A stretch of DNA of 49,534 nt from Gammaproteobacteria bacterium (lineage in GTDB: Bacteria; Pseudomonadota; Gammaproteobacteria; S012-40): contig JAOUJM010000009.1 of the NCBI GenBank assembly GCA_029883265.1, forward strand, positions 1 through 49,534, in the 5' to 3' direction. Below, one piece after another: positions 8,110-37,770 of this stretch. The first letter of the stretch is position 1, and every line of letters starts with the position of its first letter. The translations under genes were made by a program, and so were the position numbers. The notes under the pieces were generated by a model, which ran no database searches, was not told where the DNA came from, and saw only the letters and a list, made by a program, of their open reading frames with translations.

Positions 8110-8136
8110 TTCCATTATTATCACCGAAATAATATA

Positions 8137-12899: not shown

Positions 12900-12926
12900 A
12901 ATATGAAGAAAGCACTGCTAAATACG

Positions 12927-12953
12927 AGGGTTGGCCGGGATTAAAACGAGATG
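12927..12953. repeat. truncated copy of the MITE left end
   Basis: agggttggccgggattaaaacgagatg identical to first 27 bp of copies at 49 and 22489, then diverges. Confidence 0.6.
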
Positions 12954-13002
12954 TTTTAGAACTCGTGTTAGATCTTGGCCATGCAACAATACATCGTCCG
13001 TA

Positions 13003-14226: not shown

Positions 14227-14234
14227 GTTCCGAG

Positions 14235-14855
14235 ATGAGGGGCATTTTACACATCATTATGTTGCTATTTACTAAACTAGCTTTTTTTAGTTTTCTTGTG
14301 TTAACGCCGATTGTTGCAGGCGCTTCTTTCACTGAAGGTAAATTGGAGTCGCCTAATGGCACTTATTTTATTACATGGAAATGTGAAAATGAGTTTAGAG
14401 CGTCCTGTAAAATTTTGATGCATAATAAGGTTGGTGACAAAATAGTAATCAAGAAAAAAGGGAAATTGCCTATCTCTATGCAGTGGCTAACTGATTCCTT
14501 ACTGCGTTTCGTTTTTTCATGTGGCTCGCCATGTAATAGTTGGGTTTTCTATACTTTTGTCGATAAAAAGTCTCCACCCTATGGGAACCCTCAGGCTATT
14601 GAAGTCGACAAATATTTAGTAGCTGAACCTAGTTGGTTTGAATCAAAAAACGGTGATACGTTTGCAGTGCTAGAAATATATGAAATATTTTCCCGCAAAC
14701 TAGTCAAACGCATTTTCTTAGATAACTTCTCGGAGGTTGCTGCTGTCTCACTTGGTATAGAAGAGGCAAAATTTGTGGACGGTGATAAGGTTTACATTCG
14801 ATACCTAAAAGGTAAAAACCAGACCTCCGCTGAGATGACGGTTCAATTTCAGTGA
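14235..14855 (+). CDS. hypothetical exported protein
   Basis: Signal peptide-like N-terminus LLFTKLAFFSFLVLTPIVAGASF; 4-6 Cys. Confidence 0.35.
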   Translation: MRGILHIIMLLFTKLAFFSFLVLTPIVAGASFTEGKLESPNGTYFITWKCENEFRASCKILMHNKVGDKIVIKKKGKLPISMQWLTDSLLRFVFSCGSPCNSWVFYTFVDKKSPPYGNPQAIEVDKYLVAEPSWFESKNGDTFAVLEIYEIFSRKLVKRIFLDNFSEVAAVSLGIEEAKFVDGDKVYIRYLKGKNQTSAEMTVQFQ

Positions 14856-14893
14856 ATCAATGTTTTTGGATGATTAACTGTCCGCAAACGTTG

Positions 14894-21185: not shown

Positions 21186-22328
21186 TTGATTAAACACTAT
21201 ATTCAAATCATGAAATACAATTGGCAGCAACCAGACTGGACCGATTTTAACTACGATATCAAAGGCGTACAGGATATTTTGTTTGCTTTTGCTGAAAAGA
21301 CCGGACAAGTCAACGGTATCATGAAAAGCCTTCCTGGCACGATTCAAACCGATGCGGTCATCGACATTATGGTCTCTGAAGCTATTAAAACATCGGCAAT
21401 TGAAGGCGAGAATCTTAGCCGTTCCGATGTCATGTCCTCCATACGCCATAATCTTGGGCTCGATGCTAGTCCTTCCCTTGCTGTGGATAGACGAGCCAAA
21501 GGTGTGGCGGATCTTATGGTCGATGTACGTCACTCGTTTCAAGATCCGCTGACCGAAGCCACACTTTTTAAATGGCACGAAATGCTGATGAGCGGCCAGC
21601 GCAGAAACTTACCGGTCGGCATGTGGCGTAGTCATAAAGAACCCATGCAAGTGATCTCCGGAGTGATTGGAAAATGGAAAGTCCATTTTGAAGCACCGCC
21701 ATCTGATCAGGTTCCGCAAGAAATGATCAGATTTATAGACTGGTTTAACAAAACTGCCCCAAGCGCGGCGGAAGAAATCAAAAATCCTGTGATACGTTCC
21801 GCGATCGCTCATTTGTATTTTGAAAGCATTCATCCATTCGAGGATGGGAATGGCCGAATTGGTCGAGCCATTTCAGAAAAAGCACTCTCTCAAGGACTGG
21901 GCCGCCCCACCCTATTAAGTCTTTCCGACGCAATCGAAACAAAGAAGAAAGACTACTACAGCGCCTTAATGAATGCTCAAAAGTCTAATGAGATTACCCA
22001 CTGGATTAAATATTTTTCAACCACTGTACTTAGCGCTCAGATGATGGCGGAAGAAAAAATCGAGTTTATTCTTAATAAAACTAAATTCCTTGATCACTTC
22101 AAAGACCAGCTGAATGATCGTCAATTAAAAGTGATTCATCGAATGTTCGATGCAGGGGTACCAGGCTTTGACGGTGGAATGACACAAAAAAAATATGTCG
22201 CAATAACCAAAACATCAACTGCCACAGCGACTCGTGATCTAAAATATCTAGCCGACATCGGTGCGCTAAAACAAGTCGGCGGTGGTCGCAGTACCCGGTA
22301 TGAGATTGATTTCTGTTTTAATCGATAG
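21186..22328 (+). CDS. fic: Fic/DOC family protein (putative AMPylase)
   Basis: Canonical Fic motif HPFEDGNGRIGR within 380-aa protein; C-terminal winged-helix-like tail. Confidence 0.8.
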   Translation: MIKHYIQIMKYNWQQPDWTDFNYDIKGVQDILFAFAEKTGQVNGIMKSLPGTIQTDAVIDIMVSEAIKTSAIEGENLSRSDVMSSIRHNLGLDASPSLAVDRRAKGVADLMVDVRHSFQDPLTEATLFKWHEMLMSGQRRNLPVGMWRSHKEPMQVISGVIGKWKVHFEAPPSDQVPQEMIRFIDWFNKTAPSAAEEIKNPVIRSAIAHLYFESIHPFEDGNGRIGRAISEKALSQGLGRPTLLSLSDAIETKKKDYYSALMNAQKSNEITHWIKYFSTTVLSAQMMAEEKIEFILNKTKFLDHFKDQLNDRQLKVIHRMFDAGVPGFDGGMTQKKYVAITKTSTATATRDLKYLADIGALKQVGGGRSTRYEIDFCFNR

Positions 22329-22675: not shown

Positions 22676-22706
22676 ATCGGCCTTGGTAGGCCGATGCTTT
22701 ATTTTG
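22676..22706. terminator. hairpin catcggcc-ttggta-ggccgatg followed by T-run
   Basis: Immediately downstream of SPFH gene stop and MITE end. Confidence 0.4.
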
Positions 22707-23850
22707 TTGGTATATTGATGCGTACCATATCATTGATCACGCCATCGAGGCCACCGAATACAGTGAGACGCTCAATCTTATCCGTCACCTTTTCGAGCGT
22801 TTCCAACTCTTTTAGTCGCAACAATGTTGGATTGCCTTCCATGAGTTTCGCGGTGTTCAAAAGTGATCGTGTTGCCGCAGTTTCTTCACGACGTTTAATC
22901 ACATTCGCTTGAGCCGCCTTTTCCGCGGTCACCACCTGGTTCAAGATTTCTTTCATGTCACCAGGAAGAATGACATCTTTCACACCCACACTCACCACTT
23001 TCAAACCATAGGGTTCTACTCGGTTCTTCACCAAGGTGAAAACGGTGTTATCCAATTCACTTTTCTCACTTAATAACACGTCCAACGTTTGAGCACTGAT
23101 TGCCGAACGCAGTGCAAATTGCAATTCGCGATACAAGTATTCAACAAAGTTGTTTAGCTGATTGCGCGCAGTAACTGCATCAGTCACTTGATAGTGAGCA
23201 CTGAGATTCACACGTAGGCTCACTTTATCCTTGGTGAGAATTTCTTGGCCACTGACTTCCATGACTTGTAGTCGTAAATCGATGATTTCAACTTTTATAT
23301 TGCGTAGAAATTTCCAATAAACATGCAGACCCGGAGCAAGTGTTTTCACAAGTGCACCCTCTTCAATAAGCAATCCGACTTTGTTGTCGGCGATTTCTGC
23401 TACGCCAATCGTATGGCTCACTTTTGATGCCAAACCACTGCTCGTGGAACGTGCTAACAACTGCGTCACCGCTTGTGGTACCTCATAGTCTTCTTTGATA
23501 TCCAATACTTTAACATCGATATCAATTGGACCTTTCCAAAAAACGGCACGTGTACCCGGTGCAAGCACATCGGCTAATTTTGCATTTTGATACACCAGAC
23601 CGATTTCAAATTCACCGAGCTCGAAAACACGAAAGTGCTCAGCCATAAGTGCCGTGCTGTCATTCAACAATACATCTAACTGGTTATGACGAAATTCAGG
23701 TACCGTAACATCATATAACTTCACTTCTACACGTTGTGCATAGTCCAATAGGTGATAAACACCGGGATGCAATATGTCCACAAGTTTTTGATCCTGCATT
23801 TTCAAGCCACGCTGGTGTTGTGCAACAACAATTCGTTTATATCCAAACAT
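22699..23850 (-). CDS. SPFH/band-7 domain protein with N-terminal extension
   Basis: C-terminal half matches SPFH domain (LRVNLSAHYQV...YGLKVVSVGVKDVILPGDMKEILNQVVTAEKAAQANVIKRREETAATRSL); N-terminal ~170 aa unassigned. Confidence 0.6.
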   Translation of the reverse strand: MFGYKRIVVAQHQRGLKMQDQKLVDILHPGVYHLLDYAQRVEVKLYDVTVPEFRHNQLDVLLNDSTALMAEHFRVFELGEFEIGLVYQNAKLADVLAPGTRAVFWKGPIDIDVKVLDIKEDYEVPQAVTQLLARSTSSGLASKVSHTIGVAEIADNKVGLLIEEGALVKTLAPGLHVYWKFLRNIKVEIIDLRLQVMEVSGQEILTKDKVSLRVNLSAHYQVTDAVTARNQLNNFVEYLYRELQFALRSAISAQTLDVLLSEKSELDNTVFTLVKNRVEPYGLKVVSVGVKDVILPGDMKEILNQVVTAEKAAQANVIKRREETAATRSLLNTAKLMEGNPTLLRLKELETLEKVTDKIERLTVFGGLDGVINDMVRINIPTK

Positions 23851-24124: not shown

Positions 24125-24150
24125 GAACAGTGCGGGGAGTCGAACCCCAA
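24125..24150 (-). other. isolated tRNA 3'-end-like fragment (T-arm GGGG-TTCGACT-CCCC plus acceptor), no matching 5' half
   Basis: gcggggagtcgaacccc motif without complementary acceptor strand nearby; candidate att-site remnant. Confidence 0.3.
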
Positions 24151-24171
24151 GCCTCTCGGCTTTACCACGAG

Positions 24172-24242
24172 TGTCTACGGCAGGAGTCGAACCTGCTACC
24201 GGATGATTACTGTCATCTGCTCTACCCAATGAGCTACGTACA
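24172..24242 (-). pseudogene. tRNA-like pseudogene (Tyr-GUA-like anticodon, 6-nt anticodon loop, G:G mismatch in acceptor stem)
   Basis: Manual fold: D-arm GCTC/GAGC, anticodon stem GATGA/TCATC with loop CAGTAA (6 nt), T-arm GCAGG-TTCGACT-CCTGC; 71 nt. Confidence 0.35.
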
Positions 24243-24372
24243 CTGGCCTTGTTATGCACGCATTTTTTCGGTACACACCGTGCCATTGAAGCCTAAGTGT
24301 GCCAGGTGGCAACAGATGCCACGCCGCTGAAAAAACCGATTGCTTAGCAAGTCATGAAGTATCTAACGATAC

Positions 24373-24600
24373 TTACCATTCTTTTGCACCATCACACAGA
24401 GATGGTGCGCGTTCGATCTCCTCTTCCAATCCATCAAGTAAACCATAATCCTCGGCATACCACTCATCAATCATTTGACTGAGTAAGCGCGCCTCGGATT
24501 GTCGTGCACCAGATCGAACAGTCTGGTGTACGTGGCCTTTTCTCAATAGTGGAGAACATAAAACCTGTTGACGTCGTGTCGTCATGATTGTCTCCTTCAA
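24373..24600 (-). CDS. hypothetical small protein
   Basis: 75-aa ORF overlapping stop of upstream 319-aa gene by 4 bp (operonic). Confidence 0.3.
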   Translation of the reverse strand: MKETIMTTRRQQVLCSPLLRKGHVHQTVRSGARQSEARLLSQMIDEWYAEDYGLLDGLEEEIERAPSLCDGAKEW

Positions 24601-25556
24601 TGTAGGTAATACCAGGTATTGGTTTTACTTTTTTTAATCCCGCGTCGCGCAACCGAGTCCGCCATTAAAAACGCCGGTGCTTGCGCAACCTTCTCAAAAC
24701 AAAACTGGCGTGGTAATTGACTGTACAAACGCCGCGGCGGTTGTGCCCCACGTAAACGCTTCATCACATTCCCAGTCTCAAAGCTGTGATAGTAAATATG
24801 ACGCAAGCCCAACTCATGACGAATAAACCGAACTGTTGCCATGAGCATTGCTTCTTCCCACACCTCAATATACGGTGCAAAAAAGCGATTCAAGTACATC
24901 AAAATATCACGCCGTGAACCCATTAAACGGAACACATCGGAATCGTCAGAACACTGCAATACTTGCCAGGCATACAACGCCCGCCGTACCCAATCACTTT
25001 GAATCTCTTCAATTAAGGCTTCATCGCGTTCAAAGTCCACATCCATCCGTGCCCACGCCAAGGTATGTCGAAATAGCGAACGCTCCCCCCGATGATTCAC
25101 CGGGTGTAAACCGTAGTTCAAACCACAGGTCTCATGCGGTTGCGCCAAACGCTCAAAGGCTTGGTTATGCTGTTCCGAAAAATTCAGCTGCAGCACCACG
25201 TTATACCCCGGTCGAGACGTTTGTGCCCACGCACGATCGCGTCCACCCCAGGTTGTTAAACTCAACAAAAATGGTATCGCAGGACGAATCCACTGCGACC
25301 GTAAATCTTGATCACGTACCGTGGACTGACCCAGATGCGCCAGCGATTGTTGTACCTCTCTTTTTTTTAATAAACGCGCATACGACGTTTGTTTAATCTG
25401 TTTGACCGTCATGCCTTGGCCGACCAAGTCGGCCAAGAGCAAAAACGCATACTGATCTTTGAAATACCGAAAGTGCGTTTTACCCTGAGGTAAGCAATCG
25501 ATAATTTCATTCGCTTGTGTTAGTTTCATTTTGATACGCTCTCTATGTTTCAACAC
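24597..25556 (-). CDS. hypothetical protein, co-transcribed downstream of rtcB
   Basis: 319-aa ORF, Arg/Trp-rich, no motif recognised by eye; 86 bp downstream of rtcB stop on same strand. Confidence 0.45.
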   Translation of the reverse strand: MLKHRERIKMKLTQANEIIDCLPQGKTHFRYFKDQYAFLLLADLVGQGMTVKQIKQTSYARLLKKREVQQSLAHLGQSTVRDQDLRSQWIRPAIPFLLSLTTWGGRDRAWAQTSRPGYNVVLQLNFSEQHNQAFERLAQPHETCGLNYGLHPVNHRGERSLFRHTLAWARMDVDFERDEALIEEIQSDWVRRALYAWQVLQCSDDSDVFRLMGSRRDILMYLNRFFAPYIEVWEEAMLMATVRFIRHELGLRHIYYHSFETGNVMKRLRGAQPPRRLYSQLPRQFCFEKVAQAPAFLMADSVARRGIKKSKTNTWYYLH

Positions 25557-25642: not shown

Positions 25643-26869
25643 TTAACCTTTTACACAGACCACTTGTTTCAATGTATGAACCACCTCAACCAAGTCGGAC
25701 TGCGCCGCCATCACTTTGTCTATATCTTTATATGCAGCGGGCGTTTCATCGATCACACTTTTATCTTTACGACATTCCACACCGTGAGTGGCCTTCACAT
25801 GATCATCCAGACTAAAACGTTTTTTCGCTTCAGTGCGTGAATGCACCCGTCCAGCACCATGACTACAACTGCAAAAACTCTCGGCATTACCTTTGCCTTT
25901 CACAATGTAACTACGCGCACCCATTGAACCAGGAATAATCCCATACTCTCCGACCCCGGCACGCACGGCACCTTTGCGTGTGACATACACGTCCTCACCA
26001 AAATGATGTTCCACTGCCACATAATTGTGATGACAATTCACTGCCATGACTTTGGCTTGAAAACTCATGGGCAAGGTCTCACGTAAGGCCATCATAACGC
26101 GATCCATCATCACTTCTCGATTCTTCGCGGCATACGCCTGAGCCCAATGCACCGCTTGCACATAATCGTCAAAATACTCTGTGCCTTCATTCAAATATGC
26201 GAGATCACGATCCGGCAAATTTAGAATATGATGGCCCATATCTTTTTTTGCCAACTCGATAAAATAACTCCCTATGCGATTACCCACACCTCGAGAACCA
26301 CTGTGTAACATCACCCAGACATCATCTTGCTCATCCATACACACTTCGATAAAATGATTCCCGGTGCCCAAGGTGCCAAGGTGATTCACATGATTCGCTT
26401 TCGCGACCTTAGGATGTTTCTCGGCAATACGATCAAATGCATCAGCTAAGCTTGCCCATGCTTGGGATACCCGCGCGGGAATATAATGCCAGGCACCACG
26501 ATCATTACGGCCGCCGCCTTTAGTACGCCCATGCGGTACCGCCGCTTCAATGGCTGTACGCACACCGGCTAAGTTGTCTGGCAAGCGTTTTCCTTTAAGT
26601 GAGGTTTTCACTGCCATCATGCCGCAACCAATATCCACCCCCACCGCAGCTGGAATAATTGCACCGACCGTTGGAATCACCGAACCCACAGTGGCGCCTT
26701 TACCCACATGCACATCGGGCATCGCAGCTACCCAGCCATGCACAAACGGTAGCCGCGCGATATTTTGTAACTGTTGTTGCGCATTCGCATCAAACAGCAC
26801 ACCATCGGTCCAGGCTTTTATGTGCACGGCCTGTTCATCACCGATAACGTTATACGTTTTCATAGTCAT
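25643..26869 (-). CDS. rtcB: RtcB-family RNA 3'-phosphate/2',3'-cyclic phosphate ligase
   Basis: 408 aa; hallmark blocks MPDVHVGKGATVGSVIP, NCHHNYV and CSCSHGAGR (catalytic His region). Confidence 0.85.
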   Translation of the reverse strand: MTMKTYNVIGDEQAVHIKAWTDGVLFDANAQQQLQNIARLPFVHGWVAAMPDVHVGKGATVGSVIPTVGAIIPAAVGVDIGCGMMAVKTSLKGKRLPDNLAGVRTAIEAAVPHGRTKGGGRNDRGAWHYIPARVSQAWASLADAFDRIAEKHPKVAKANHVNHLGTLGTGNHFIEVCMDEQDDVWVMLHSGSRGVGNRIGSYFIELAKKDMGHHILNLPDRDLAYLNEGTEYFDDYVQAVHWAQAYAAKNREVMMDRVMMALRETLPMSFQAKVMAVNCHHNYVAVEHHFGEDVYVTRKGAVRAGVGEYGIIPGSMGARSYIVKGKGNAESFCSCSHGAGRVHSRTEAKKRFSLDDHVKATHGVECRKDKSVIDETPAAYKDIDKVMAAQSDLVEVVHTLKQVVCVKG

Positions 26870-26888: not shown

Positions 26889-27428
26889 TCAAAACCGATT
26901 GCTCAAAAATGCCATTTGGTCGGCAAGAATGCATCGATTTCTCAGTGTTAACCACTCCGCATAATTCGGTGTATACGGCACACCGTGTAATGTCATATTC
27001 GCTTCATCGGGCGTGCGGTCTGCTTTTCTCTCATTACATACCCGACATGCTGATACCACATTGGTCCACACATTCGCACCACCCCTTGATAGCGGCATCA
27101 CATGATCCCGCGTCAGTTTGGAATCGGGTAATGATGCTAGACAATACATACATAAATGCCCATCCCGACGGAACAACTCACGGTTATTCAATGGGGGTAT
27201 CATCGTATAACGATTGACACCGTTAACCCCGCGACATGCAAGAATAGAATTGATTGCAATCCGCGAGCGTTGGCCCGTTAACCGATTTCGGCCACCATTG
27301 ATCCACAAGTGTTCATTACCAGCGATCCAAACAACTTTATCGTTCACTAATAACAATGCCGCAGTTTGCCAAGGCATCCACCCCAAGGGTTGGCCCGCAA
27401 TATCCAGTCGCAAAATTAGATGCGTCAT
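26889..27428 (-). CDS. HNH endonuclease (McrA-like)
   Basis: HNH motif CMYCLASLPDSKLTRDHVMPLSRGGANVWTNVVSACRVCNERKADRTP (C-x2-C...H...N...C-x2-C). Confidence 0.75.
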   Translation of the reverse strand: MTHLILRLDIAGQPLGWMPWQTAALLLVNDKVVWIAGNEHLWINGGRNRLTGQRSRIAINSILACRGVNGVNRYTMIPPLNNRELFRRDGHLCMYCLASLPDSKLTRDHVMPLSRGGANVWTNVVSACRVCNERKADRTPDEANMTLHGVPYTPNYAEWLTLRNRCILADQMAFLSNRF

Positions 27429-27492: not shown

Positions 27493-27565
27493 TGGCGCAA
27501 GCGATGTGATTCGAACACATACATCGACAATCACTCGATGCACCAATTAGCAATCGGCTGCCTTA
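27493..27565 (-). tRNA. tRNA-like gene, non-canonical (possible Ile-GAU anticodon; too-short variable region)
   Basis: T-arm ATGTG-TTCGAAT-CACAT and CCA present; anticodon stem CATCGA/TCGATG loop GTGATTG; acceptor has one mismatch; variable loop cannot be placed canonically. Confidence 0.3.
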
Positions 27566-27592
27566 CCCTTCGGCCACGCTTTCATCAATCGG

Positions 27593-27675
27593 TGCGTCTG
27601 GCCCGATTCGAACGGGCATGCTAAAAAAGCGACGAGATTTAAGCTCGCTCTGTATTCCTAATCCACCACAGTCGC
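27593..27675 (-). tRNA. tRNA-Leu(UAA), class II
   Basis: Manual cloverleaf: anticodon loop CTTAAAT; long variable arm; T-arm GCCCG-TTCGAAT-CGGGC; one A:A mismatch in acceptor; no encoded CCA. Confidence 0.55.
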
Positions 27676-27680
27676 GCAAT

Positions 27681-27756
27681 TGGTGGTGATCGTACGATTC
27701 GAACGTACATCGCCCTGCGTATGAGACAGGTGCTTTACCAATTAAGCACGATCACC
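27681..27756 (-). tRNA. tRNA-Met(CAU) elongator-type (or Ile2)
   Basis: Perfect acceptor GGTGATC/GATCACC, D-stem GCTT/AAGC, anticodon loop CTCATAC, T-arm GTACG-TTCGAAT-CGTAC, CCA encoded. Confidence 0.7.
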
Positions 27757-27757
27757 T

Positions 27758-27832
27758 TGGCACCCCGTAACGGATTCAAACCGCTAGCTGCTGATTTGGA
27801 GTCAGCCGTTTTATCACATAAACTAACGAGGC
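27758..27832 (-). tRNA. tRNA-Trp(CCA)
   Basis: Anticodon stem GCTGA/TCAGC loop CTCCAAA; D-stem GTTT/AAAC; T-loop TTTGAAT (T56 instead of C56); CCA encoded. Confidence 0.6.
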
Positions 27833-27838
27833 TAAAAC

Positions 27839-27912
27839 TGGCTCCCCGAGATCGATTCGAACGATCACTCCAAGTGTCAAAGACTTGTGTTCTACCATTA
27901 AACCATCGGGAA
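27839..27912 (-). tRNA. tRNA-Gln(UUG)
   Basis: Anticodon stem CAAGT/ACTTG loop CTTTGAC; T-arm GATCG-TTCGAAT-CGATC; CCA encoded. Confidence 0.7.
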
Positions 27913-27920
27913 AAAGTCGT

Positions 27921-27996
27921 TGGTGCCCTCACCAAGATTCGAACTTGGATCATTCACTTTCGTAGAGTGAGGCTTTAATCATTAAGCTATGAAGGC
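27921..27996 (-). tRNA. tRNA-Arg(ACG)
   Basis: Anticodon stem TCACT/AGTGA loop CTACGAA; D-stem GCTT/AAGC; T-arm CCAAG-TTCGAAT-CTTGG; CCA encoded. Confidence 0.7.
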
Positions 27997-27998
27997 AT

Positions 27999-28073
27999 TG
28001 GTCGGCGCACTCGGATTCAAACCGAGAACCTTCTGTATGTAAAACAGATGCTCTGTCATTGAGCTATGCGTCA
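27999..28073 (-). tRNA. tRNA-Val(UAC)
   Basis: Anticodon stem TCTGT/ACAGA loop TTTACAT; D-stem GCTC/GAGC; T-loop TTTGAAT; one acceptor mismatch. Confidence 0.55.
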
Positions 28074-28074
28074 T

Positions 28075-28149
28075 TGGTAGGTCTGATAAGATTTGAACTT
28101 ATATCTTTCGGGTTAAAAGCCCGATGCTTTACCATTAAGCGACAGACCC
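28075..28149 (-). tRNA. tRNA-Lys(UUU)
   Basis: Anticodon stem TCGGG/CCCGA loop CTTTTAA; D-stem GCTT/AAGC; T-arm ATAAG-TTCAAAT-CTTAT; CCA encoded. Confidence 0.7.
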
Positions 28150-28153
28150 AGCG

Positions 28154-28372
28154 TTAGCACATAAATCGCGCAAGCATATACGCTTCATCAAAATGGTTGT
28201 GGTCACGATTACGAATGCCACCATGACGAATGAACCACACCGCATTGTTTGGACTTCCGTACTTTCGTTGCTCGGGAAGATCCATGGATGCAATCAATTG
28301 CTCAAACCGTTGAGTTTGACGGCGTCGCAATAAACCCACGGTGCGTTGTTGTTGATAGTTTAAAACAGGCAT
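28154..28372 (-). CDS. hypothetical small basic protein embedded in tRNA array
   Basis: 72-aa ORF (Arg-rich) occupying the only gap in the tRNA array. Confidence 0.3.
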   Translation of the reverse strand: MPVLNYQQQRTVGLLRRRQTQRFEQLIASMDLPEQRKYGSPNNAVWFIRHGGIRNRDHNHFDEAYMLARFMC

Positions 28373-28407
28373 TACGACGTCTCCTTTTCATTGTGTGATT
28401 AAAAAAA

Positions 28408-28483
28408 TGGTACGCCCTACAGGATTCAAACCTGTGACCCTCCGGTTCGAAGCCGGATGCGCTATTCGCTGCGCCAAGGGCGT
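28408..28483 (-). tRNA. tRNA-Arg(UCG)
   Basis: Perfect acceptor ACGCCCT/AGGGCGT, anticodon stem TCCGG/CCGGA loop CTTCGAA, T-arm ACAGG-TTTGAAT-CCTGT, CCA encoded. Confidence 0.7.
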
Positions 28484-28490
28484 TTTGAAG

Positions 28491-28576
28491 TGGTAGCGCG
28501 GGAGCGATTTGAACGCTCAATCCTCAAAGGCATCTGGGCCTAAACCAGGCGTGTATTCCAGTTCCACCACCGCGCC
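28491..28576 (-). tRNA. tRNA-Leu(UAG), class II
   Basis: 5' GGCGCGGTGGTGGAACTGGAATACAC closely resembles bacterial tRNA-Leu; anticodon loop TTTAGGC; long variable arm; T-arm GAGCG-TTCAAAT-CGCTC; CCA encoded. Confidence 0.7.
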
Positions 28577-28582
28577 AGTGTT

Positions 28583-28658
28583 TGGGGCGACCGACGAGAT
28601 TTGCACTCGTATCGTCCTGGGTCACAACCAGGTGCTTTTCTATTAAGCTAAAGCCGCC
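28583..28658 (-). tRNA. tRNA-His(GUG) with G-1:C73
   Basis: Extra 5' G pairing with discriminator C; anticodon stem CCTGG/CCAGG loop TTGTGAC; D-stem GCTT/AAGC; T-loop TGCAAAT (G at position 55). Confidence 0.65.
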
Positions 28659-28664
28659 AATGTT

Positions 28665-28742
28665 TGGTCGGTGCTGAAGGATTCGAACCTTCGACCCTCT
28701 CGTCCCAAACGAGATGCGCTCATCAGACTGCGCCAAGCCCCG
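28665..28742 (-). tRNA. tRNA-Pro(UGG)
   Basis: Anticodon stem TCTCG/CGAGA loop TTTGGGA; D-stem GCGC; T-arm GAAGG-TTCGAAT-CCTTC; CCA encoded. Confidence 0.65.
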
Positions 28743-28857
28743 TTATAATACGCCAACGTTTTCTAAGCATCATTCTGTTGGCGGTGCAATTGCACTACCA
28801 CGCCTTCTAATCGGAGGTGGTGTTCCGGTGAACAAGCGGTTCACACGCATGTGTCAT

Positions 28858-28933
28858 TGGAGAACCGGACGGGATTCGAACCCGCACCATCCAGGTTGAA
28901 GGCCTGGTCGCTTAACCATTTGCATACCGGTTC
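28858..28933 (-). tRNA. tRNA-Glu(UUC)-like, non-canonical anticodon loop (C at position 33)
   Basis: Perfect acceptor GAACCGG/CCGGTTC; anticodon stem CCAGG/CCTGG loop CCTTCAA; T-arm GCGGG-TTCGAAT-CCCGT; CCA encoded. Confidence 0.5.
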
Positions 28934-28938
28934 ATAAT

Positions 28939-29013
28939 TGGCGGGATGGACGGGAATCAAACCCGCGTCCTCTTGATCGACAATCAAGTGCATGGTCATT
29001 CTGCCACCATCCC
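28939..29013 (-). tRNA. tRNA-Asp(GUC)
   Basis: Perfect acceptor GGGATGG/CCATCCC; anticodon stem CTTGA/TCAAG loop TTGTCGA; T-loop TTTGATT; CCA encoded. Confidence 0.65.
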
Positions 29014-29019
29014 TTGGTT

Positions 29020-29094
29020 TGGCTGCTAGGGTCAGACTCGAACTGACATGCCACGCCTTAACAGGACGTTCACCTACCCATGGTGCACCTAGCA
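29020..29094 (-). tRNA. tRNA-Asn(GUU)
   Basis: Perfect acceptor TGCTAGG/CCTAGCA; D-stem CACC/GGTG; anticodon loop CTGTTAA; T-arm GTCAG-TTCGAGT-CTGAC; CCA encoded. Confidence 0.7.
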
Positions 29095-29100
29095 TCTTTT

Positions 29101-29177
29101 TGGCGCAGCGAGAAGGACTTGCACCTCCACCGCCTTGGGCTTCAACCAAGCGCTCTACTACTTGGAGCTATCGCTGC
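29101..29177 (-). tRNA. tRNA-Phe(GAA)
   Basis: Perfect acceptor GCAGCGA/TCGCTGC; D-stem GCTC/GAGC; anticodon stem CTTGG/CCAAG loop TTGAAGC; T-loop TGCAAGT (G55); CCA encoded. Confidence 0.65.
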
Positions 29178-29436
29178 AAAACTGATTGGCGTTACTGAGA
29201 TCGGGTTCCCCAACCGATACCGGACATTGCGTCTCACGTTTATGAATCAGCATTACTCGTCTTTGATTCTTTTTTGACAGTCGTAATAAAAAATCCTCAA
29301 TAGACTCTGATTCCAACCCAGTGCTGTCACACCGCTCAGTAACATTGAACCTGGAGCTCAAAATCCGATTTGCACGGACATCTACTGATTACAAGTCAGT
29401 TGTTTTGCTTATTAAACTATTTAGGCTTGGTCGTCC

Positions 29437-29531
29437 TGCCTCGAATCGAACGAGGATCATGCGCTAATCGGGCGCTCATCCAAGGTATAAGCTTGGCGTT
29501 TTACCTATTAAACTACAGGACGAAAAATTTT
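29437..29531 (-). tRNA. unusual long-variable-arm tRNA-like gene with anticodon loop CTTATAC (UAU)
   Basis: Perfect acceptor CGTCCTG/CAGGACG, D-stem GTTT/AAAC, anticodon stem CCAAG/CTTGG, 25-nt variable region, T-arm CCTCG-TTCGATT-CGAGG, CCA encoded; 95 nt. Confidence 0.45.
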
Positions 29532-30037
29532 TATGCGGGCAATGATTGCAGCACACACATGGACAAAATCATGATGTGACCGGCGAACCGAGCCCGTAGC
29601 CGTGATGTTTACAACGAAACATCACGAAACACGTTCCTACTTGTTAAAGAGCAACGTTTATCATCGTGGATAAACGTGAGGCAAAAAAAACCTCAATACA
29701 CATCGTTTTATCGATGCCCATCGAGGCTGTGTCGTTCCATCGATGGGCTGTTACTAACCCATCGCATGTGTGCAAAGGGTTAAGTCATAGTGTCATGTAC
29801 AAACCATTCGTTTGTCTCAATACCAGATGCGAGTCGATACAGATCACCGCAATTAAAAATTGTGCAACCATGTGCCGGACAACTCCTGTCTATGATCTGG
29901 GCTATTGGACTTAAAAATATTTGCATGGTGTTCCTTCAAATAAAAAAATCGTGGGCATAAAAAAACCCCGGTTTGCCAACCAGGGTTCCATTATGAATAC
30001 CGTGGAAGGCTCAGCGCCTTCCAACATGAAAGGCATA

Positions 30038-32677: not shown

Positions 32678-33846
32678 CCCGATCTGACAGTTACCCGTTT
32701 TTTAAGATGCCTGTCAGTTTAGATTTGAGCTATATTTTTTTCCACCCAAATCTTTTTCCCGTCAAGTAAAGTTGCTTGGGGTGTTTTCCCAAGACATTTC
32801 TTACCTTGATGGGTTCGTTCATTGTTATAGTATTCGATCCATTCGTCCAGATCTTTTTGCAAGTCCTCCATGGTTGAGTATAGTTTTTTCCGAAATGTAA
32901 TCTGATAAAATTCGTTTAAGATCGTTTTGTGAAAACGTTCGCAGATCCCATTAGTCTGCGGTGACATGGCTTTTGTCTTGGTGTGGTCAATGTCATTAAT
33001 CGCTAAATACAATTGATAATCATGCTGTTCCACGCGACCACAATATTCCGTCCCACGATCCGTCAAGATTCGTAGCATGGGGAGTTTATGGCTTTCAAAA
33101 TACGGCAGGACTTTGTCATTGAGTAAGTCGGCAGCTGTTATCGGTGTCTTCGACGTGTAGAGCTTGGCAAAGGCCACTTTACTATACGTGTCGACAAAAG
33201 TTTGTTGATAGATGCGATCGACTCCCTTGAGGTTGCCGACATAAAAGGTGTCTTGCGACCCCAGATAGCCTGGGTGCTGCGTTTCTATCTCGCCACTGAC
33301 TTCATCATCATGCTTTTTCTTTTCCAATGCAGCGACCTGTGCATCGCTGAGAATGATGCCGTCCTTCGCTACTTTTTCCTCAAGTGCTTTCAGCCGCTTT
33401 TTGAAATTCTCAAGATTGTGACGCAACCAAACGGAACGCACACCACTACCAGAAACAAAAACGCCTTGTTTGCGCAACTCATTGCTAGTGCGGTGTTGGC
33501 CATGGGCAGGCTGCTCAATCGCATAGGTGATGACCGCTTGTTCAACCACCTCGTCAACTCGATTTTTGTGATTTGGGACACGTCGATTCTTGTCAACTAA
33601 AGCGTCGATCCCACCGTCTTCCACGAGCTCTTGATAGCGATAAAACGTGTCCCGAGACACGCCCATTACTTTACAGGCTTTGGAAACATTACCTAATTCT
33701 TCCGCCAAATTGAGTAATCCGGCTTTGTGTTTAATAATAGGATTGTTAGTATGTATCATTGAGAGTTACCTTTTGTTTTGAAATAAAGATTCGACACCTT
33801 TATCAAAACGGGTAACTCTCTTCTTGTCAATTCGAAGTGTCAGATC
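32678..33846 (-). mobile_element. IS481-family insertion sequence
   Basis: Single transposase gene flanked by imperfect IRs gatctgaca...gttacccgtttt (32681-32701) and reverse complement at 33805-33846 (right IR carries a 21-bp insertion). Confidence 0.7.
32719..33759 (-). CDS. IS481-family DDE transposase (rve integrase core)
   Basis: N-terminal HTH (KACKVMGVSRDTFYRYQ), DDE/rve region ILTDRGTEY...NGICERFHKT...YNNERTHQG. Confidence 0.85.
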   Translation of the reverse strand: MIHTNNPIIKHKAGLLNLAEELGNVSKACKVMGVSRDTFYRYQELVEDGGIDALVDKNRRVPNHKNRVDEVVEQAVITYAIEQPAHGQHRTSNELRKQGVFVSGSGVRSVWLRHNLENFKKRLKALEEKVAKDGIILSDAQVAALEKKKHDDEVSGEIETQHPGYLGSQDTFYVGNLKGVDRIYQQTFVDTYSKVAFAKLYTSKTPITAADLLNDKVLPYFESHKLPMLRILTDRGTEYCGRVEQHDYQLYLAINDIDHTKTKAMSPQTNGICERFHKTILNEFYQITFRKKLYSTMEDLQKDLDEWIEYYNNERTHQGKKCLGKTPQATLLDGKKIWVEKNIAQI

Positions 33847-34495: not shown

Positions 34496-37400
34496 CCTCT
34501 AAATCGTTGGGGACCCTACTTTGGGGTGCTAGGGACATATCGTCCGCACGTAACAATTATCGCTACAGCCCCTGTCACATATAGAGTCTAGAGGGGCTTC
34601 AATTTCAAAAATTTCAATACCGTCGTTTACTTTAAGGTATTATTGGGCCTTTTGGACAATTTATGGCCTTCAAAGAACGGCTCACCATTCTTCTCGAACC
34701 CAAAATCAGGGATCTTTACCGTGTCCCGGTATTATCACTTGAGCAAAAACGAGTGTGTTTTGCATTAAACGATCTCGAACTGACTTGCATAGCAACCATA
34801 AGAGACAGAAATCAAAAGTGTTTTGCGATTGCACTCCTTGGATACTTCAAGGTAAAACCAATTACACTTAATCCCCGGTTTGGTGATGTGCAATCTGATC
34901 TATTTTTCATTGCAAAGGAATATTTTCCCAAGTTTAGTGTTCCGCGTTTTAGTGTAAATCGAATGCAGAGAGTGCGGCTATATCAAAAAGTTCTCGATGT
35001 ATTGGGTTTCAAAAACTGGGCTACTTCCAATGAACTCGAATTATTTAAGCATTTGAAATCAATTGCCAACTCTTGCATTGAACCACGTTATCTTTTCGAT
35101 GCTGGTATTGAATACCTTGCTCAAAAACATATTGCTAGCCCAAAATATACCGTACTTCAACAGATAATCAGTAAAGTAATTACTGCTGAGAAACAGCAAA
35201 TCGACACGATGCTAAAAACAGTAATGCCCCCTAGTTTATCGACTGCACTGAATGAGCAGATCTTTAGTGATACGTCGACCACTTTACGTGATGTTCGTCG
35301 GTCAGCCAAAAGCTTTACACCGGCAGAGCTGGAAAAAGAACTCAAAACTTATGATCATATTTGTTCATGGGTGGACGATATTGACCTGATTAGTGGGCAA
35401 CTAAATCTATCAATTAAGAATCAGCAACACTTTGCATCCATGGTTGATTATTACACTTTAACCAAGCTAAAGCGCTTTGATCGCGGGACTCAACAACTTT
35501 ATTTGATTTGCTATTTGCAGGAGCGACATCAACTTATCGTAGAACACCTGGCTGATGGTTTTATCTATCATACTCGTAAGCTCTGTGAGCAAGCCAAAAT
35601 TTATGCAAAAGAAACAGCCTACCTGGATTGGCAAGGTGCGGCTTCGAATGTGGGTAAAGCTGCAGATCTGTTACGCTTCTTTATCGATGATGATATTGAC
35701 GGCACACTGCCTTTTGAAACCGTGCGGGAGCAAGCTCAAGATTTATTAAAAGCGAGGGACATTGAATCATTGTGCCTGTATTTATCAAAACAAAAACGAG
35801 CCTTGGATGATTATGTTTGGGAATACTATGATCAGAAGACGGATCTAATTGAACGTCTATTACGACCGATTTTTTTATCTTTGGAATTCCAAGCATCAAC
35901 AACAACTCAAACCTTAGCATCACAAATTGCAGTATCCCAACGGGAACTCCAAACCTCACAATCACTCCTTACTTTCGATCGTCGATTGATACGCCCAAAA
36001 CAGCAGCCATATGTAGTGATTGATAATAGTGTCAATGAAAACCGATTTGAAATCCTGCTATATCTTATGGTGCAAAGTAAGCTAGACGGTCAGCTCTACA
36101 TACCGAACGCCATAAAATATCGCGCACTGCAGGATGATCTGATCAGTGACGAGGTATGGAAAGGCAAGAAAAAACTGATTAAAAACTCGATGCTGCCGCG
36201 CATCGATACTGCACCCAAAAAACTCATGGGCACGATGAACAAGACGCTCTCAAAAAAGCTAAATGATGTCAGCGAACGGATTGAGAATGGTGATAATGAG
36301 AATGTCATCTTGCGCAACCGAAGCGGCAAGACTCAATGGCGACTACCCTCGACGGGCGCAAAAAGCATGCTCAATAATCCATTTTTTGAACAATTGAAAC
36401 CAGTCAACATTGCCGACCTATTGCGACTTATAGATAAAGAAACTGGCTACCTAGCATGTTTTGAACACGTGCGACAAATTCAGACTGATCAGCGTTTTTA
36501 TGTAAATGACTTGCTAGCCGCTATAATCGGTAACGGAACCAATTACGGTATTTATGGCATGGCCAGTATTTCAGATCGCAGTTATGAACAGCTGCGAACA
36601 ACCCAAGCTAACTACCTCCGTCCTGAAACGCTTAATCAAGCGAACGACACCATTAATAATGGCATCGCTAATCTTGAAATCTTCAAGCACTACAATATTC
36701 AAGAAGGCTTGGTCCACGCCAGTGCTGATGGCCAAAAGTTTGAGTCGCGCTTAGAAACGTTTAAAACGCGATACTCATCGAAGTACTTCGGCACCAACAA
36801 AGGCGTTTCCGCACTGACACTCATAGCCAACCATGCGGCTCTGAATGCAAGAGTGACTGGATCGAACGAACATGAACCTCACTACATCTTTGACTTGCTT
36901 TATAACAACACATCTGAGATCAAACCAGACGTTTTATCGACAGATACGCACGGCGTAAACCATGTGAACTTTGCACTCTTAGATCTGTTTGGATACACCT
37001 TTGCTCCAAGGTATGCGCAATTTGGTAAAGTGATTGAAGATATGTTTGTCATCAATGAGAAAGACAATCAGAAACCAATGCTGTCACTAAAAAAACCAAT
37101 CAATACTCAGCTGATCGAGCAAGAATGGGAAACGATCCAACGAATCATCATTTCTTTACAACGAAAAACAATGACACAAGCAACGCTAGTGCGGAAACTT
37201 TCAGGTTACAGTAAAAATCATCCTTTACTACAGGCATTAACGGAATACAATCGGATGATCAAAGCCATGTACATCCTGGATTATATCGATGATGCTAGCT
37301 TGCGAAGGTATGTGCAACGCGCACTGAATCGTGGAGAAGCCTATCACCAACTACGCCGTGCGATTGCTTCAGTAAATGGAAACCGATTCAGAGGCTCATC

Positions 37401-37770
37401 GGATTATGAAATCGAACTTTGGAACGAATGTGCCAGGCTATTGACCAATGCTATCATCTATTTCAACTCCCTAATCCTAAACCACTTGCTCATTTATTTT
37501 GCAGACAACGGCGATGAAGAAAAACTCGAACTAACAAAAATGGTATCACCAGTAGCCTGGTATAATATAAATCTGAACGGAACATACAGTTTCAGCTTTG
37601 AACAAAACTTGCTCGATATTATAGAAATTATGAAACCATTGACTGAAAATCAGGAAAAAGGAAATTGAAGGGGCTCTGTAAGCTATGGATACCAAGGGCT
37701 GTAGCGATAATTGTTACATGCGGACGATATGTCCCTTGTACCCCAAGTAGGGGCCTCAAGAATTTAGAGG
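34496..37770 (+). mobile_element. Tn3-family single-gene transposable element with long (~110-bp, imperfect) terminal inverted repeats
   Basis: 34496-34606 is reverse-complement of 37661-37770 (core GGGGTGCTAGGGACATATCGTCCGCACGTAACAATTATCGCTACAGCCCC nearly perfect); right IR overlaps tnpA stop; no resolvase or cargo. Confidence 0.75.
34663..37668 (+). CDS. tnpA: Tn3-family transposase TnpA
   Basis: 1001 aa; C-terminal Tn3 signature VLSTDTHGVNHVNFALLDLFGYTFAPRYAQFG (DTHG...F-PR) and overall size typical of Tn3 TnpA. Confidence 0.8.
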   Translation: MAFKERLTILLEPKIRDLYRVPVLSLEQKRVCFALNDLELTCIATIRDRNQKCFAIALLGYFKVKPITLNPRFGDVQSDLFFIAKEYFPKFSVPRFSVNRMQRVRLYQKVLDVLGFKNWATSNELELFKHLKSIANSCIEPRYLFDAGIEYLAQKHIASPKYTVLQQIISKVITAEKQQIDTMLKTVMPPSLSTALNEQIFSDTSTTLRDVRRSAKSFTPAELEKELKTYDHICSWVDDIDLISGQLNLSIKNQQHFASMVDYYTLTKLKRFDRGTQQLYLICYLQERHQLIVEHLADGFIYHTRKLCEQAKIYAKETAYLDWQGAASNVGKAADLLRFFIDDDIDGTLPFETVREQAQDLLKARDIESLCLYLSKQKRALDDYVWEYYDQKTDLIERLLRPIFLSLEFQASTTTQTLASQIAVSQRELQTSQSLLTFDRRLIRPKQQPYVVIDNSVNENRFEILLYLMVQSKLDGQLYIPNAIKYRALQDDLISDEVWKGKKKLIKNSMLPRIDTAPKKLMGTMNKTLSKKLNDVSERIENGDNENVILRNRSGKTQWRLPSTGAKSMLNNPFFEQLKPVNIADLLRLIDKETGYLACFEHVRQIQTDQRFYVNDLLAAIIGNGTNYGIYGMASISDRSYEQLRTTQANYLRPETLNQANDTINNGIANLEIFKHYNIQEGLVHASADGQKFESRLETFKTRYSSKYFGTNKGVSALTLIANHAALNARVTGSNEHEPHYIFDLLYNNTSEIKPDVLSTDTHGVNHVNFALLDLFGYTFAPRYAQFGKVIEDMFVINEKDNQKPMLSLKKPINTQLIEQEWETIQRIIISLQRKTMTQATLVRKLSGYSKNHPLLQALTEYNRMIKAMYILDYIDDASLRRYVQRALNRGEAYHQLRRAIASVNGNRFRGSSDYEIELWNECARLLTNAIIYFNSLILNHLLIYFADNGDEEKLELTKMVSPVAWYNINLNGTYSFSFEQNLLDIIEIMKPLTENQEKGN

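Follow-up and report, generated by a model that had tools for sequence, protein, structure and literature searches.

Variant-elbow tRNAs and a long-armed tRNA(UAU) in a gammaproteobacterial L-array-type island joined to an HNH gene and an RtcB/Band-7 repair operon

The 49,534-nucleotide stretch analyzed here (the window) belongs to a gammaproteobacterial metagenome-assembled genome and carries an L-array-type tRNA island with HNH and RtcB genes: a long, dense array of horizontal origin with both genes in its neighborhood. The structurally unusual tRNA genes of this island are probably intact accessory tRNAs, part of a horizontally acquired, phage-type L-array that is fused to the HNH gene and to an operon encoding RtcB, a Band-7-associated tRNA-like RNA (b7a-tRNA), and a Band-7 protein. 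Structures, compensatory changes, conservation, and gene context carry this reading, and from them we infer expression, charging, and any nuclease resistance.

The array occupies positions 27493..29522 on the minus strand, where ARAGORN and the Rfam tRNA covariance model place 18 tRNA genes in 2.03 kb. Spacers are mostly 2 to 10 nt, with three larger gaps. A 3' CCA is encoded in 17 of the 18 genes, the exception being Leu(UAA), whose ARAGORN call ends after ACC; U33 is likewise present in 17 of 18, with Glu as the exception. An Rfam search of positions 28380-29560 (E <= 1) detected no degenerate tRNAs in two of the gaps (28743-28857 and 29178-29351), and RNAfold indicated no additional tRNAs in any of the three. 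One gap contains a 72-aa ORF. A promoter/terminator scan, which carries little information, detected no σ70-like promoter upstream of the array. The first-pass annotation had folded the loops by hand and named software refolding and covariance-model scoring as checks. ARAGORN and the Rfam model run in Infernal reproduced its registers, with all stems of the flagged genes intact. Their RF00005 scores were 51.1 (His), 50.7 (Phe), 57.1 (Thr), 59.2 (Glu), 59.7 (UAU), and 50.0 bits (the gene at 24171-24243), that is, 50 to 60 bits against a gathering score of 29 and a range of 43 to 76 in the rest of the array. Measured against a canonical elongator tRNA, the RF00005 scores suffice, and the combination of G18-G19 with U54-U55-C56 is absent from 9 of the 18 array genes.

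The array is followed at its 3' side by the HNH gene and the repair operon, which comprise the following features:

26889..27428, minus strand: HNH endonuclease with PHROG and Pfam HNH matches, immediately 3' to the array
25643..26869, minus strand: RtcB RNA 3'-phosphate ligase (phrog_1075, E = 3.9e-147; PF01139)
24597..25556, minus strand: 319-aa protein of no detectable family, conserved near RtcB and Band-7 in locus L026
24171..24243, minus strand: predicted b7a-tRNA; its anticodon loop has 6 nt (CAGUAA), and CCA is not encoded
22699..23850, minus strand: SPFH/Band-7 protein (PF01145, E = 2.4e-30), terminal gene of the repair module

The 319-aa protein has 38% identity to its L026 counterpart by tblastn and had no match in PADLOC, Pfam, PHROGs, or the PDB. 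The RNA gene at 24171-24243 had been described as a Tyr-like copy of an array tRNA with a 6-nt anticodon loop. The loop is as described, but rather than a Tyr-like array copy the gene is a predicted b7a-tRNA, because its D- and T-arms and a position 300 to 450 nt upstream of Band-7 (here 320 nt from the Band-7 start) are common to at least 14 loci. Among these b7a-tRNA-like loci, five have 6-nt loops, and the "anticodons" vary. RtcB, Band-7, and a tRNA-like gene make up the repair operon of Burroughs and Aravind (2016), as outlined in a later summary (bioRxiv 10.1101/312249). The window gene would then be a cofactor-like RNA and not a decoder.

Several observations bear on the mobility of the island. 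The array has a GC content of ∼48%, compared with ∼41% in the flanks, and Tn3, IS481-like, and IS66 transposases lie nearby. A related contig (L002) carries the same element with a different flank, diverging from the window past position 22486. The array is collinear with that of L170/L171, and the HNH/RtcB/Band-7 supermodule recurs both there and in L026; homologues of the window HNH protein flank arrays in L170 and L026, and no arrays were present beside two other homologues (P0002 and P0004). Near and distant DNA searches of phage and plasmid collections returned generic tRNA matches only and no close relatives of the array. RtcB cannot trace the element since it is 60 to 70% identical across phyla. 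Baiting genome and viral collections with RtcB yielded background arrays and b7a-tRNA loci. The window contains neither host tRNAs nor a cognate nuclease; PADLOC reported only a SoFic-like gene near the locus.

Positions G18, G19, Ψ55, C56, and U33 are near-invariant in tRNAs. Three array genes depart from this rule at positions 18 and 55:

28583..28657, minus strand: tRNA-His(GUG), T-loop UGCAAAU (G55), D-loop AAUAGAA (A18 G19)
29101..29177, minus strand: tRNA-Phe(GAA), T-loop UGCAAGU (G55), D-loop CAAGUAGUA (A18 G19)
29352..29426, minus strand: tRNA-Thr(UGU), T-loop UGCAAAU (G55), D-loop AAUAAGCA (A18 G19)

The G55 reported earlier for His and Phe was recovered with both ARAGORN and Infernal, and the Thr gene is a third case absent from the earlier list. 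G55 had also been counted as anticodon-loop variation; it sits in the T-loop and is thus a change of the tRNA elbow. In the D-loops of all three genes, A18-G19 replaces G18-G19, and the T-loops fit the pattern U-G-N-R-A (UGCAA) with A18 as the partner base. Each of the three is single copy in the window array, and tRNA-His has an encoded G-1 (position 28658) and the discriminator C73.

To place these variants in a wider background, 1,742 unique tRNAs were compared, a set gathered with RtcB and tRNA(UAU) baits, array- and phage-rich and biased as a background. G55 was found in 3 of 18 genes of the window array, in 28 of the 1,742 tRNAs of this array-rich sample, and in 0 of 269 at RtcB-linked loci. 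A18-G19 accompanied G55 in 26 of the 28 cases, compared with 10 of the 1,714 other tRNAs (p=2.5e-47), with positions 18 and 19 assigned by a positional rule on ARAGORN D-loops and not from three-dimensional structure. The 28 tRNAs are spread over 21 loci and cover 16 anticodon classes. In the same set the 54:58 T-loop pair was maintained, including through A54/U58 swaps (p=2.5e-72). Switches are also seen between orthologues: tRNA-His is AG/UGC at positions 18-19/54-56 in the window and GG/UUU in L170 (T-loop UUUGAGU), and the L170 segment orthologous to the window Thr gene retains GUGCA. Phage T5 has no G55 tRNA and one A19/U56 tRNA.

Outside tRNAs, 88.7% of T-loops are UGNRA and the intercalating base is nearly always adenosine; tRNA T-loops have U at position 2 (bioRxiv 10.1101/2022.12.26.521914). 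The pairing of A18 with G55 would convert a UUCRA T-loop with an intercalating G18 into a UGNRA T-loop with an intercalating adenosine, a riboswitch-type contact, in which case the L-shape should be retained. An alternative fold of UGCAA, a GNRA tetraloop with U54-A59 as its closing pair, was rejected on two grounds: G55 is also found in loops of the AGCGUUA type that carry the A54/U58 swap, and the standard consensus of T-loops is UGNRA. No description of A18/G55 covariation was found in the literature searched.

A second set of elbow changes involves positions 19 and 56:

28939..29013, minus strand: tRNA-Asp(GUC), T-loop UUUGAUU (U56), D-loop GAAUGACCA (A19)
27999..28073, minus strand: tRNA-Val(UAC), U56 with A19
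27758..27832, minus strand: tRNA-Trp(CCA), U56 with A19
28408..28483, minus strand: tRNA-Arg(UCG), U56 with A19
28665..28742, minus strand: tRNA-Pro(UGG), A19 opposite C56, uncompensated
27921..27996, minus strand: tRNA-Arg(ACG), A19 opposite C56, uncompensated

In tRNA-Asp the 19:56 pair is A-U in place of G-C, as it also is in the L170 orthologue. For Arg(UCG), the window has GA/UUU and L170 has GG/UUU, the G19 and U56 of the latter forming a G-U intermediate; the L170 Pro orthologue combines A19 with U56. Association of A19 with U56 was strong among the 1,742 array tRNAs (p=5e-40), suggesting a plain Watson-Crick swap of the elbow pair. Together, the three A18 genes, four A19/U56 genes, and two A19/C56 genes leave 9 of the 18 array genes without canonical G18-G19.

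One array gene deviates in the anticodon loop instead:

28858..28933, minus strand: tRNA-Glu(UUC), anticodon loop CCUUCAA (C33), canonical elbow

ARAGORN and Infernal both place C at position 33, as first reported. C33 was present in 48 of 1,727 array tRNAs (2.8%). Unrelated Glu genes in L331 and L422 share the CCUUCAA loop, C33 in tRNA-Glu has at least two lineages of origin, and the L331 and L422 orthologues kept C33 while their anticodon stems diverged. C33 thus appears to be a recurrent variant that is tolerated in array and phage tRNAs.

If the flagged genes encode intact accessory tRNAs, the island could supply a reserve tRNA set when host tRNAs are damaged or depleted, its RtcB ligase could reseal cut tRNAs, and the altered loops might plausibly shift susceptibility to loop-specific tRNases or modification enzymes. 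Escape from tRNA-targeting nucleases is a plausible fit to this context, because an RtcB RNA-ligase repair operon borders the array and because toxins that cut the T-loop (PMC9086364) and the anticodon loop (PMC10264068) are documented. Neutral compensatory drift accounts for part of the pattern just as well.

It is possible, if on balance somewhat doubtful, that drift is the whole explanation: the tRNAs would be functional, their variants would have passed through slightly deleterious intermediates under weaker purifying selection, and nuclease evasion would play no part. Such intermediates are seen (G19/U56 in the L170 Arg(UCG) and His genes, A19/C56 in the window Pro and Arg(ACG) genes), A18 occurs in 10 non-G55 tRNAs, and two G55 tRNAs lack A18. 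The variants are spread over many isotypes with no obvious tie to a known nuclease target, and the T5 set, with its single A19/U56 tRNA, has none with G55. However, the altered positions rank among the most conserved in tRNA, half of the window array deviates from G18-G19, C33 was kept in the L331 and L422 orthologues despite divergence of the anticodon stem, and an RNA-repair operon is physically linked to the array.

The remaining flagged gene differs in architecture:

29428..29522, minus strand: class II tRNA, anticodon UAU, 95 nt, anticodon loop CUUAUAC, variable region of ∼23 nt

Both programs confirmed the combination of a UAU loop with a long variable arm that had first been noticed in this gene. 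It has a 7/5 acceptor/T configuration, A73, C4-G69, and a variable arm with the stem GCGC/GCGC and the loop CCGAUUA. These features place it in a class II tRNA(UAU) family defined in the present analysis, whose members are 91 to 96 nt long with a 7/5 cloverleaf, a 4-bp variable-arm stem, and a 7-nt arm loop, YAGAUKA, in which GAU is invariant. The family was searched with a pattern of the variable arm and T-arm only and was found in at least 120 viral loci (contigs). All 78 unique class II genes had the anticodon UAU, across more than 35 different anticodon stems. The alignment revealed pairing throughout the five helices, with double-sided changes in 4 of 4 variable-arm pairs and 4 of 5 T-stem pairs; the acceptor stem is 7 bp, the T-stem is 5 bp, U8 and A9 are invariant, and the first T-stem pair, 49:65, covaries (GC 9, AU 5, CG 3, UA 1). 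C4-G69 is present in 95% of members and A73 in 100%, as in class I tRNA-Ile(UAU). The D-arm is also class I-like (4-bp stem, 7- to 8-nt loop), which distinguishes it from the D-arms of bacterial Leu, Ser, and Tyr tRNAs carried by the same arrays. Among the first 22 class II loci, none had a class I Ile(UAU) gene alongside, which suggests that the class II tRNA stands in for it. No protein family constantly accompanied the class II gene in the stored flanks, the best being present at 15 of 131 loci. One member is from a cultured phage, Lactobacillus phage LpeD, in which the gene is unannotated. No phage class II tRNA-Ile(UAU) was described in the literature searched, and the gene apparently represents a large phage family that is new to the literature. 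Judged from these sequence features, it most likely reads AUA as Ile.

The two novelties may tentatively be joined in a single reading, for which we see a modest chance: a UGNRA elbow with an adenosine partner and a class II tRNA-Ile(UAU) with a GAU arm loop would together make the island a toxin-resistant translation back-up kit. Rewiring of the elbow would preserve the L-shape yet deprive TruB of its target U55 and T-loop tRNases of the T-Ψ site at which they cut, the arm-loop GAU could serve as an additional element for identity or handling, and AUA would be decoded independently of the host lysidine (TilS) pathway. GAU is the anticodon of the major tRNA-Ile.

A role off the ribosome is unlikely. 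On this account the G55/A18 tRNAs, and perhaps the class II tRNA(UAU), would serve as toxin decoys or sponges, as repair substrates or cofactors, or as amino-acid donors. There are precedents: a staphylococcal nonproteogenic tRNA-Gly without G18-G19 and U55 is excluded from translation (PMC13443448), allo-tRNA(UAU) species gave no suppression in E. coli, a sponge role was proposed for array tRNAs (PMC8421152), and the neighboring b7a-tRNA is a nondecoding tRNA mimic. Against this account, G55 occurs in 16 anticodon classes and fills otherwise unique decoding slots, as do the single-copy His, Phe, and Thr genes of the window, and the anticodon loops, acceptor stems, and CCA ends are canonical. 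In the Anabaena array, moreover, 23 of 26 tRNAs are aminoacylated and array tRNAs are found on polysomes (PMC8421152).

Recoding by the class II tRNA(UAU), in which the long arm and A73 would make it a LeuRS (or SerRS) substrate and AUA would be read as Leu or Ser, is improbable. A nematode class II tRNA-Ile(UAU) offers an in vitro precedent (PMC3333845), and A73 is invariant in the family. It is established that neither LeuRS nor SerRS reads the anticodon. However, the class I-like D-arm sets the family apart from Leu, Ser, and Tyr tRNAs, C4-G69 and A73 are those of class I tRNA-Ile(UAU), the class II gene replaces the class I gene without co-occurrence, and the discriminator is not the G73 preferred by SerRS.

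Decay, raised in the first-pass annotation as the alternative (silent pseudogene cargo whose odd nucleotides are random damage en route to loss), is very improbable: the flagged genes have intact stems and score 50 to 60 bits, A18 goes with G55 and A19 with U56, the A18/G55 pair arises three times in one array and in 26 of 28 cases elsewhere as random decay would not be expected to do, His switches states between orthologues and retains G-1 and C73, and the class II tRNA(UAU), with covariation in its variable-arm stem, has been conserved in more than 100 viral contigs. Decay does occur in arrays of this lineage, since L170 has a Thr gene broken in the anticodon stem, an interrupted Leu(UAG), a broken Arg(UCG), and no Glu; the uncompensated A19/C56 of the window Pro and Arg(ACG) genes, the lack of a detected promoter upstream of the array, and the 3 of 26 Anabaena array genes that are pseudogenes (PMC8421152) also speak for this alternative.

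With the flagged genes read as intact accessory tRNAs, the recurrent natural covariation of A18 with G55 suggests that the tRNA elbow can adopt the generic UGNRA T-loop solution, and these tRNAs are ready variants with which to probe what the canonical elbow contact serves: modification by TruB and TrmA, RNase P, interaction with the ribosomal L1 stalk and protein L5, and T-loop tRNases. The class II tRNA-Ile(UAU) offers a testable new tRNA architecture bound to a single anticodon. Fusion of the array to the RtcB/b7a-tRNA/Band-7 operon ties together the ideas of reserve tRNAs and tRNA repair, both so far genomics based, and because the fusion is physical, the tRNA-damage hypothesis becomes directly testable.

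Several known systems resemble parts of this island. FMN and cobalamin riboswitches share the U-G-N-R-A T-loop and its adenosine partner with the window G55 tRNAs (bioRxiv 10.1101/2022.12.26.521914). Unlike in the riboswitches, the window motif lies within otherwise ordinary tRNAs that keep G19-C56, and a three-dimensional equivalence is suggested by covariation only. The staphylococcal tRNA-Gly (PMC13443448) is a partial likeness, a natural bacterial tRNA without G18-G19 and U55. It is, however, a single isotype used in cell wall synthesis; its anticodon loop is shortened and its EF-Tu determinants are weak, whereas the window G55 tRNAs span many isotypes, replace G18 alone, and have normal anticodon loops.

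The class II tRNA(UAU) shares its long variable arm and UAU anticodon with allo-tRNA(UAU) (Mukai et al. 2017, PMC5389517). Allo-tRNAs are metagenomic, are found near mobile or toxin-antitoxin genes, and have UAU as their commonest non-Ser anticodon (PMC5389517). They are defined by 8/4 or 9/3 (12-bp) acceptor branches; membership was rejected for the window gene because it is 7/5, as is the phage family as a whole, with its invariant U8-A9 and covarying 49:65 pair. Nematode nev-tRNA-Ile(UAU) is also class II with UAU (Hamashima et al. 2012, PMC3333845), but nev-tRNAs are eukaryotic and Leu-type, and the phage family has its own variable-arm loop, YAGAUKA. In Mycoplasma and Bifidobacterium, tRNA-Ile3(UAU) likewise uses UAU as an AUA decoder without lysidine (PMC8450103), but it is a class I tRNA.

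Phage escape tRNAs (van den Berg et al. 2023, PMC10264068), including the case of PARIS and the T5 tRNA-Lys (PMC11464382), are mobile tRNAs whose nuclease-targeted loops deviate, and the window array is similar in this respect. The window C33 adjoins the usual cleavage sites. The text of PMC10264068 mentions neither position 33 nor the T-loop. The escape variants in that study are in the anticodon loop, whereas the window deviations are mostly in the elbow (positions 18, 19, 55, and 56).

The repair operon matches the parts of the Burroughs and Aravind operon outlined in bioRxiv 10.1101/312249, namely, RtcB, Band-7, and a tRNA-like gene upstream of Band-7. By comparison with that outline, it differs in its attachment to a tRNA array and an HNH gene and in its inclusion of the uncharacterized 319-aa protein. 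The island as a whole resembles the L-arrays described in 2021 (PMC8421152), which are dense and mobile, comprise ∼20 supernumerary tRNA genes, and have an adjacent HNH gene and RtcB nearby. A search of that text returned no mention of the T-loop, U33, or the variable arm. Unlike these L-arrays, the window array belongs to a gammaproteobacterium and forms a physical fusion with RtcB, the b7a-tRNA, and Band-7.

ARAGORN predicted an array of 18 tRNA genes and a single tRNA-like gene apart from it, in the following setting.

14894-16339 (−), IS66 transposase
21186-22328 (+), Fic-domain protein with a hit to the SoFic defence model of PADLOC at E = 1.9e-51, just outside ∼22486, the point where a related contig (L002) departs from the window
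24134-24148 (−), second T-arm-like hairpin (GGGGUUCGACUCCCC), ∼22 nt downstream of the lone tRNA-like gene
24171-24243 (−), lone tRNA-like gene
24597-25556 (−), 319-aa protein, between RtcB and the lone tRNA-like gene
27493-29522 (−), array of 18 tRNA genes
28154-28372 (−), called 72-aa ORF in the largest gap of the array, recalling the small ORFs scattered across the phage T5 tRNA region
29352-29426 (−), Thr gene of the array
32719-33759 (−), IS481-like transposase
34663-37668 (+), Tn3-family transposase

The loop deviations claimed by the first-pass annotation were recovered in the same register by the Rfam tRNA model: T-loops UGCAAAU in His and UGCAAGU in Phe, the C33-containing anticodon loop CCUUCAA in Glu, and the loop CUUAUAC with a variable region of ∼23 nt in a long-armed gene of 95 nt. 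The 6-nt anticodon loop of the lone gene (CAGUAA) was likewise confirmed. The flagged genes scored 50 to 60 bits (gathering score, 29), within an array spanning 43 to 76 bits. The Thr gene, absent from the original list, also has the T-loop UGCAAAU, and all three G55 genes (His, Phe, and Thr) carry A18-G19 in place of G18-G19, as in the D-loop AAUAGAA of His versus AAUGGUA of Lys. A19 and U56 occur together in Asp, Val, Trp, and Arg(UCG), C56 faces A19 in Pro and Arg(ACG), and canonical G18G19 is missing from half of the array genes. These previously overlooked features (Thr G55, A18, and A19/U56) alter the picture of the array.

Elbow positions were compared across 1,742 unique ARAGORN tRNAs, an array-rich set baited with RtcB and with patterns for the tRNA(UAU) anticodon arm and for the variable arm, with positions 18 and 19 assigned by a positional rule. 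In this bait-selected set, G55 was present in 28 tRNAs (21 loci, 16 anticodon classes), 26 of which had A18G19, versus 10 of the 1,714 others (Fisher p = 2.5e-47). A19 was associated with U56 (p = 5e-40) and U58 with A54 (p = 2.5e-72). C55 tRNAs retained GG. The A54/U58 swap was seen in G55 loops as well (AGCGUUA), which indicates that the 54:58 T-loop pair is maintained and disfavors a GNRA fold of the UGCAA loops. Non-tRNA T-loops follow UGNRA (88.7% in FMN riboswitches), with an intercalator between T-loop positions 4 and 5 that is nearly always adenosine; tRNAs form a special case in using G18 and a U at T-loop position 2 (bioRxiv 10.1101/2022.12.26.521914). Because UGCAA with A18 follows this published pattern, it reads as the generic T-loop contact set into a tRNA elbow.

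A homologous array, collinear with that of the window and adjoining a 65%-identical HNH gene, was found in L170/L171. Its His orthologue has GG with UUUGAGU versus AG with UGCAAAU in the window, its Arg(UCG) orthologue shows a G-U intermediate (GG, U56) versus GA with U56, and its Cys, a different gene, has AG with UGCAAUU. The surrounding island (1025-15988) is dense in RNA-repair and ribosome-rescue genes, holding RtcA, RtcB, RtcR, RlaP, HNH, Band-7, RbfA, a second RtcB, PrfH (PrfH-like, with an RF-1 domain), and PcfJ. About 75 nt are extra at the position of the window's Leu(UAG). The paired elbow changes are strong evidence, from sequence covariation, for selection on the fold. They oppose random decay, and with it the suggestion that these could be decaying pseudogenes. 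Some drift and decay are nevertheless real, since several L170/L171 tRNA genes are broken or interrupted (Thr, for instance, in its anticodon stem) and compensation is missing from two genes of the window.

C33 was present in 48 of 1,727 7-nt anticodon loops of the bait-selected array set, in many isotypes. The Glu loop CCUUCAA recurs identically in loci L331 and L422, whose Glu genes are mutual orthologues with differing anticodon stems and only about 67% identical to that of the window. This sharing among distant genes, together with the spread of isotypes, marks C33 as a recurrent, retained variant among array and phage tRNAs.

Eighteen relatives of the 95-nt gene, found via its anticodon arm, aligned into a cloverleaf of five helices in which every cell (100%) is paired. 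Double-sided changes occurred at all four variable-arm pairs and at four of five T-stem pairs, including the first, and U8 and A9 were invariant; therefore, the family has a 7/5 configuration, which excludes it from the 8/4 or 9/3 allo-tRNAs. [quoted passage not shown] A second pattern, drawn from the variable-arm loop and T-arm alone, matched at least 120 viral contigs; UAU is the anticodon of all 78 unique genes obtained (91 to 96 nt), whose anticodon stems come in more than 35 versions. C4-G69 (95%) and A73 (100%) are present as in class I tRNA-Ile(UAU), and none of the first 22 loci has a class I copy alongside, which together point to an AUA/Ile decoder bearing an extra arm. In the flanking sequence surveyed around these loci, no protein family emerged as a regular partner of the gene.

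C33 also occurs in 5 of the 78 genes (CCUAUAC or CCUAUAA; L339-L456 set), so that both oddities can combine in one gene. Lactobacillus phage LpeD provides a cultured, unannotated example adjoining HNH and Dps genes. No tRNAs are annotated at 134772-142861 of its record (MF787246; L338), where ARAGORN predicted 15; among them are the class II tRNA-Ile(UAU), "Leu" genes of class I length, T-loops with C55, a Gly gene with C33, and an anticodon loop of 8 nt. Further arrays (L091/L095/L151, L064, L144, L157, and L165) contain long-armed tRNAs with non-Leu/Ser/Tyr anticodons: Cys(GCA), 82 nt; Met(CAU), 87 nt; Asp(GUC), 91 nt; Thr(UGU), 87 nt; and one of 98 nt with an 8-nt loop.

The lone gene had been read as a Tyr-like copy. 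In at least 14 RtcB loci of other gammaproteobacteria, a lone tRNA-like gene precedes a Band-7 homologue by 300 to 450 nt. The D-arm (GUAGCUCA..GGGUAGAGCA) and T-arm of the window gene recur in these genes, with variable "anticodons" and 6-nt loops in five. The shared arms, the position, and the varying "anticodons" therefore identify it as the band-7-associated tRNA-like RNA (b7a-tRNA), outside the decoding array. In certain related loci, among them L025 and L065, a tandem pair of tRNA-like genes occupies the corresponding place.

Rather than a phage genome, the region is a complete contig (49.5 kb) belonging to a Gammaproteobacteria MAG; it encodes a LytS-type kinase, flagellar proteins, and transposases of the IS66, IS481-like, and Tn3 types. 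Immediately 3' of the array, the same strand carries, in order, the genes for HNH endonuclease, RtcB, and the 319-aa protein, an ORF of 70 aa, the lone tRNA-like gene, and the gene for an SPFH/Band-7 protein. The element occurs at 99.9 to 100% identity on five metagenome contigs, one of which diverges just beyond the Band-7 gene. The island of array and repair genes lies between these transposases, as would fit a mobile element. The 319-aa protein had no match in Pfam, PHROG, PADLOC, or PDB; a 38%-identical homologue lies in another RtcB/Band-7/array locus (L026, 19701-20633), and it may be an uncharacterised repair-system component.

A mobile array is joined to an RNA-ligase operon, and its tRNA structures are intact, compensated, and conserved. 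By analogy with Anabaena, where 23 of 26 array tRNAs were aminoacylated upon translational stress (PMC8421152), the island would provide reserve tRNAs and religate cut tRNAs. Hypothetically, the altered loops might also change recognition by loop-specific enzymes: the T-loop tRNase CdiA-CT E479 cleaves between the conserved T and Ψ (PMC9086364), and escape of phage tRNAs via the anticodon loop is documented (PMC10264068). A serious rival explanation for why the variants exist is that accessory tRNAs, which evolve fast, undergo neutral compensatory drift.

L-arrays are long tRNA arrays that have spread horizontally, with HNH as a conserved neighbour and RtcB as a co-regulated gene (PMC8421152). 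Burroughs and Aravind, as relayed in bioRxiv 10.1101/312249, proposed the RtcB/Band-7 operon and predicted for it a "band-7-associated tRNA". The locus is a fresh member of these known kinds, an L-array plus an RtcB/Band-7/b7a-tRNA system. Judged by the literature that could be searched, the A18/G55 elbow covariation appears to be a new variant, and so does the class II tRNA-Ile(UAU) family of phages, whose arm loop is conserved. A literature search found no published description of this family; its closest precedents are the nev-tRNA(UAU) of nematodes and allo-tRNA(UAU).
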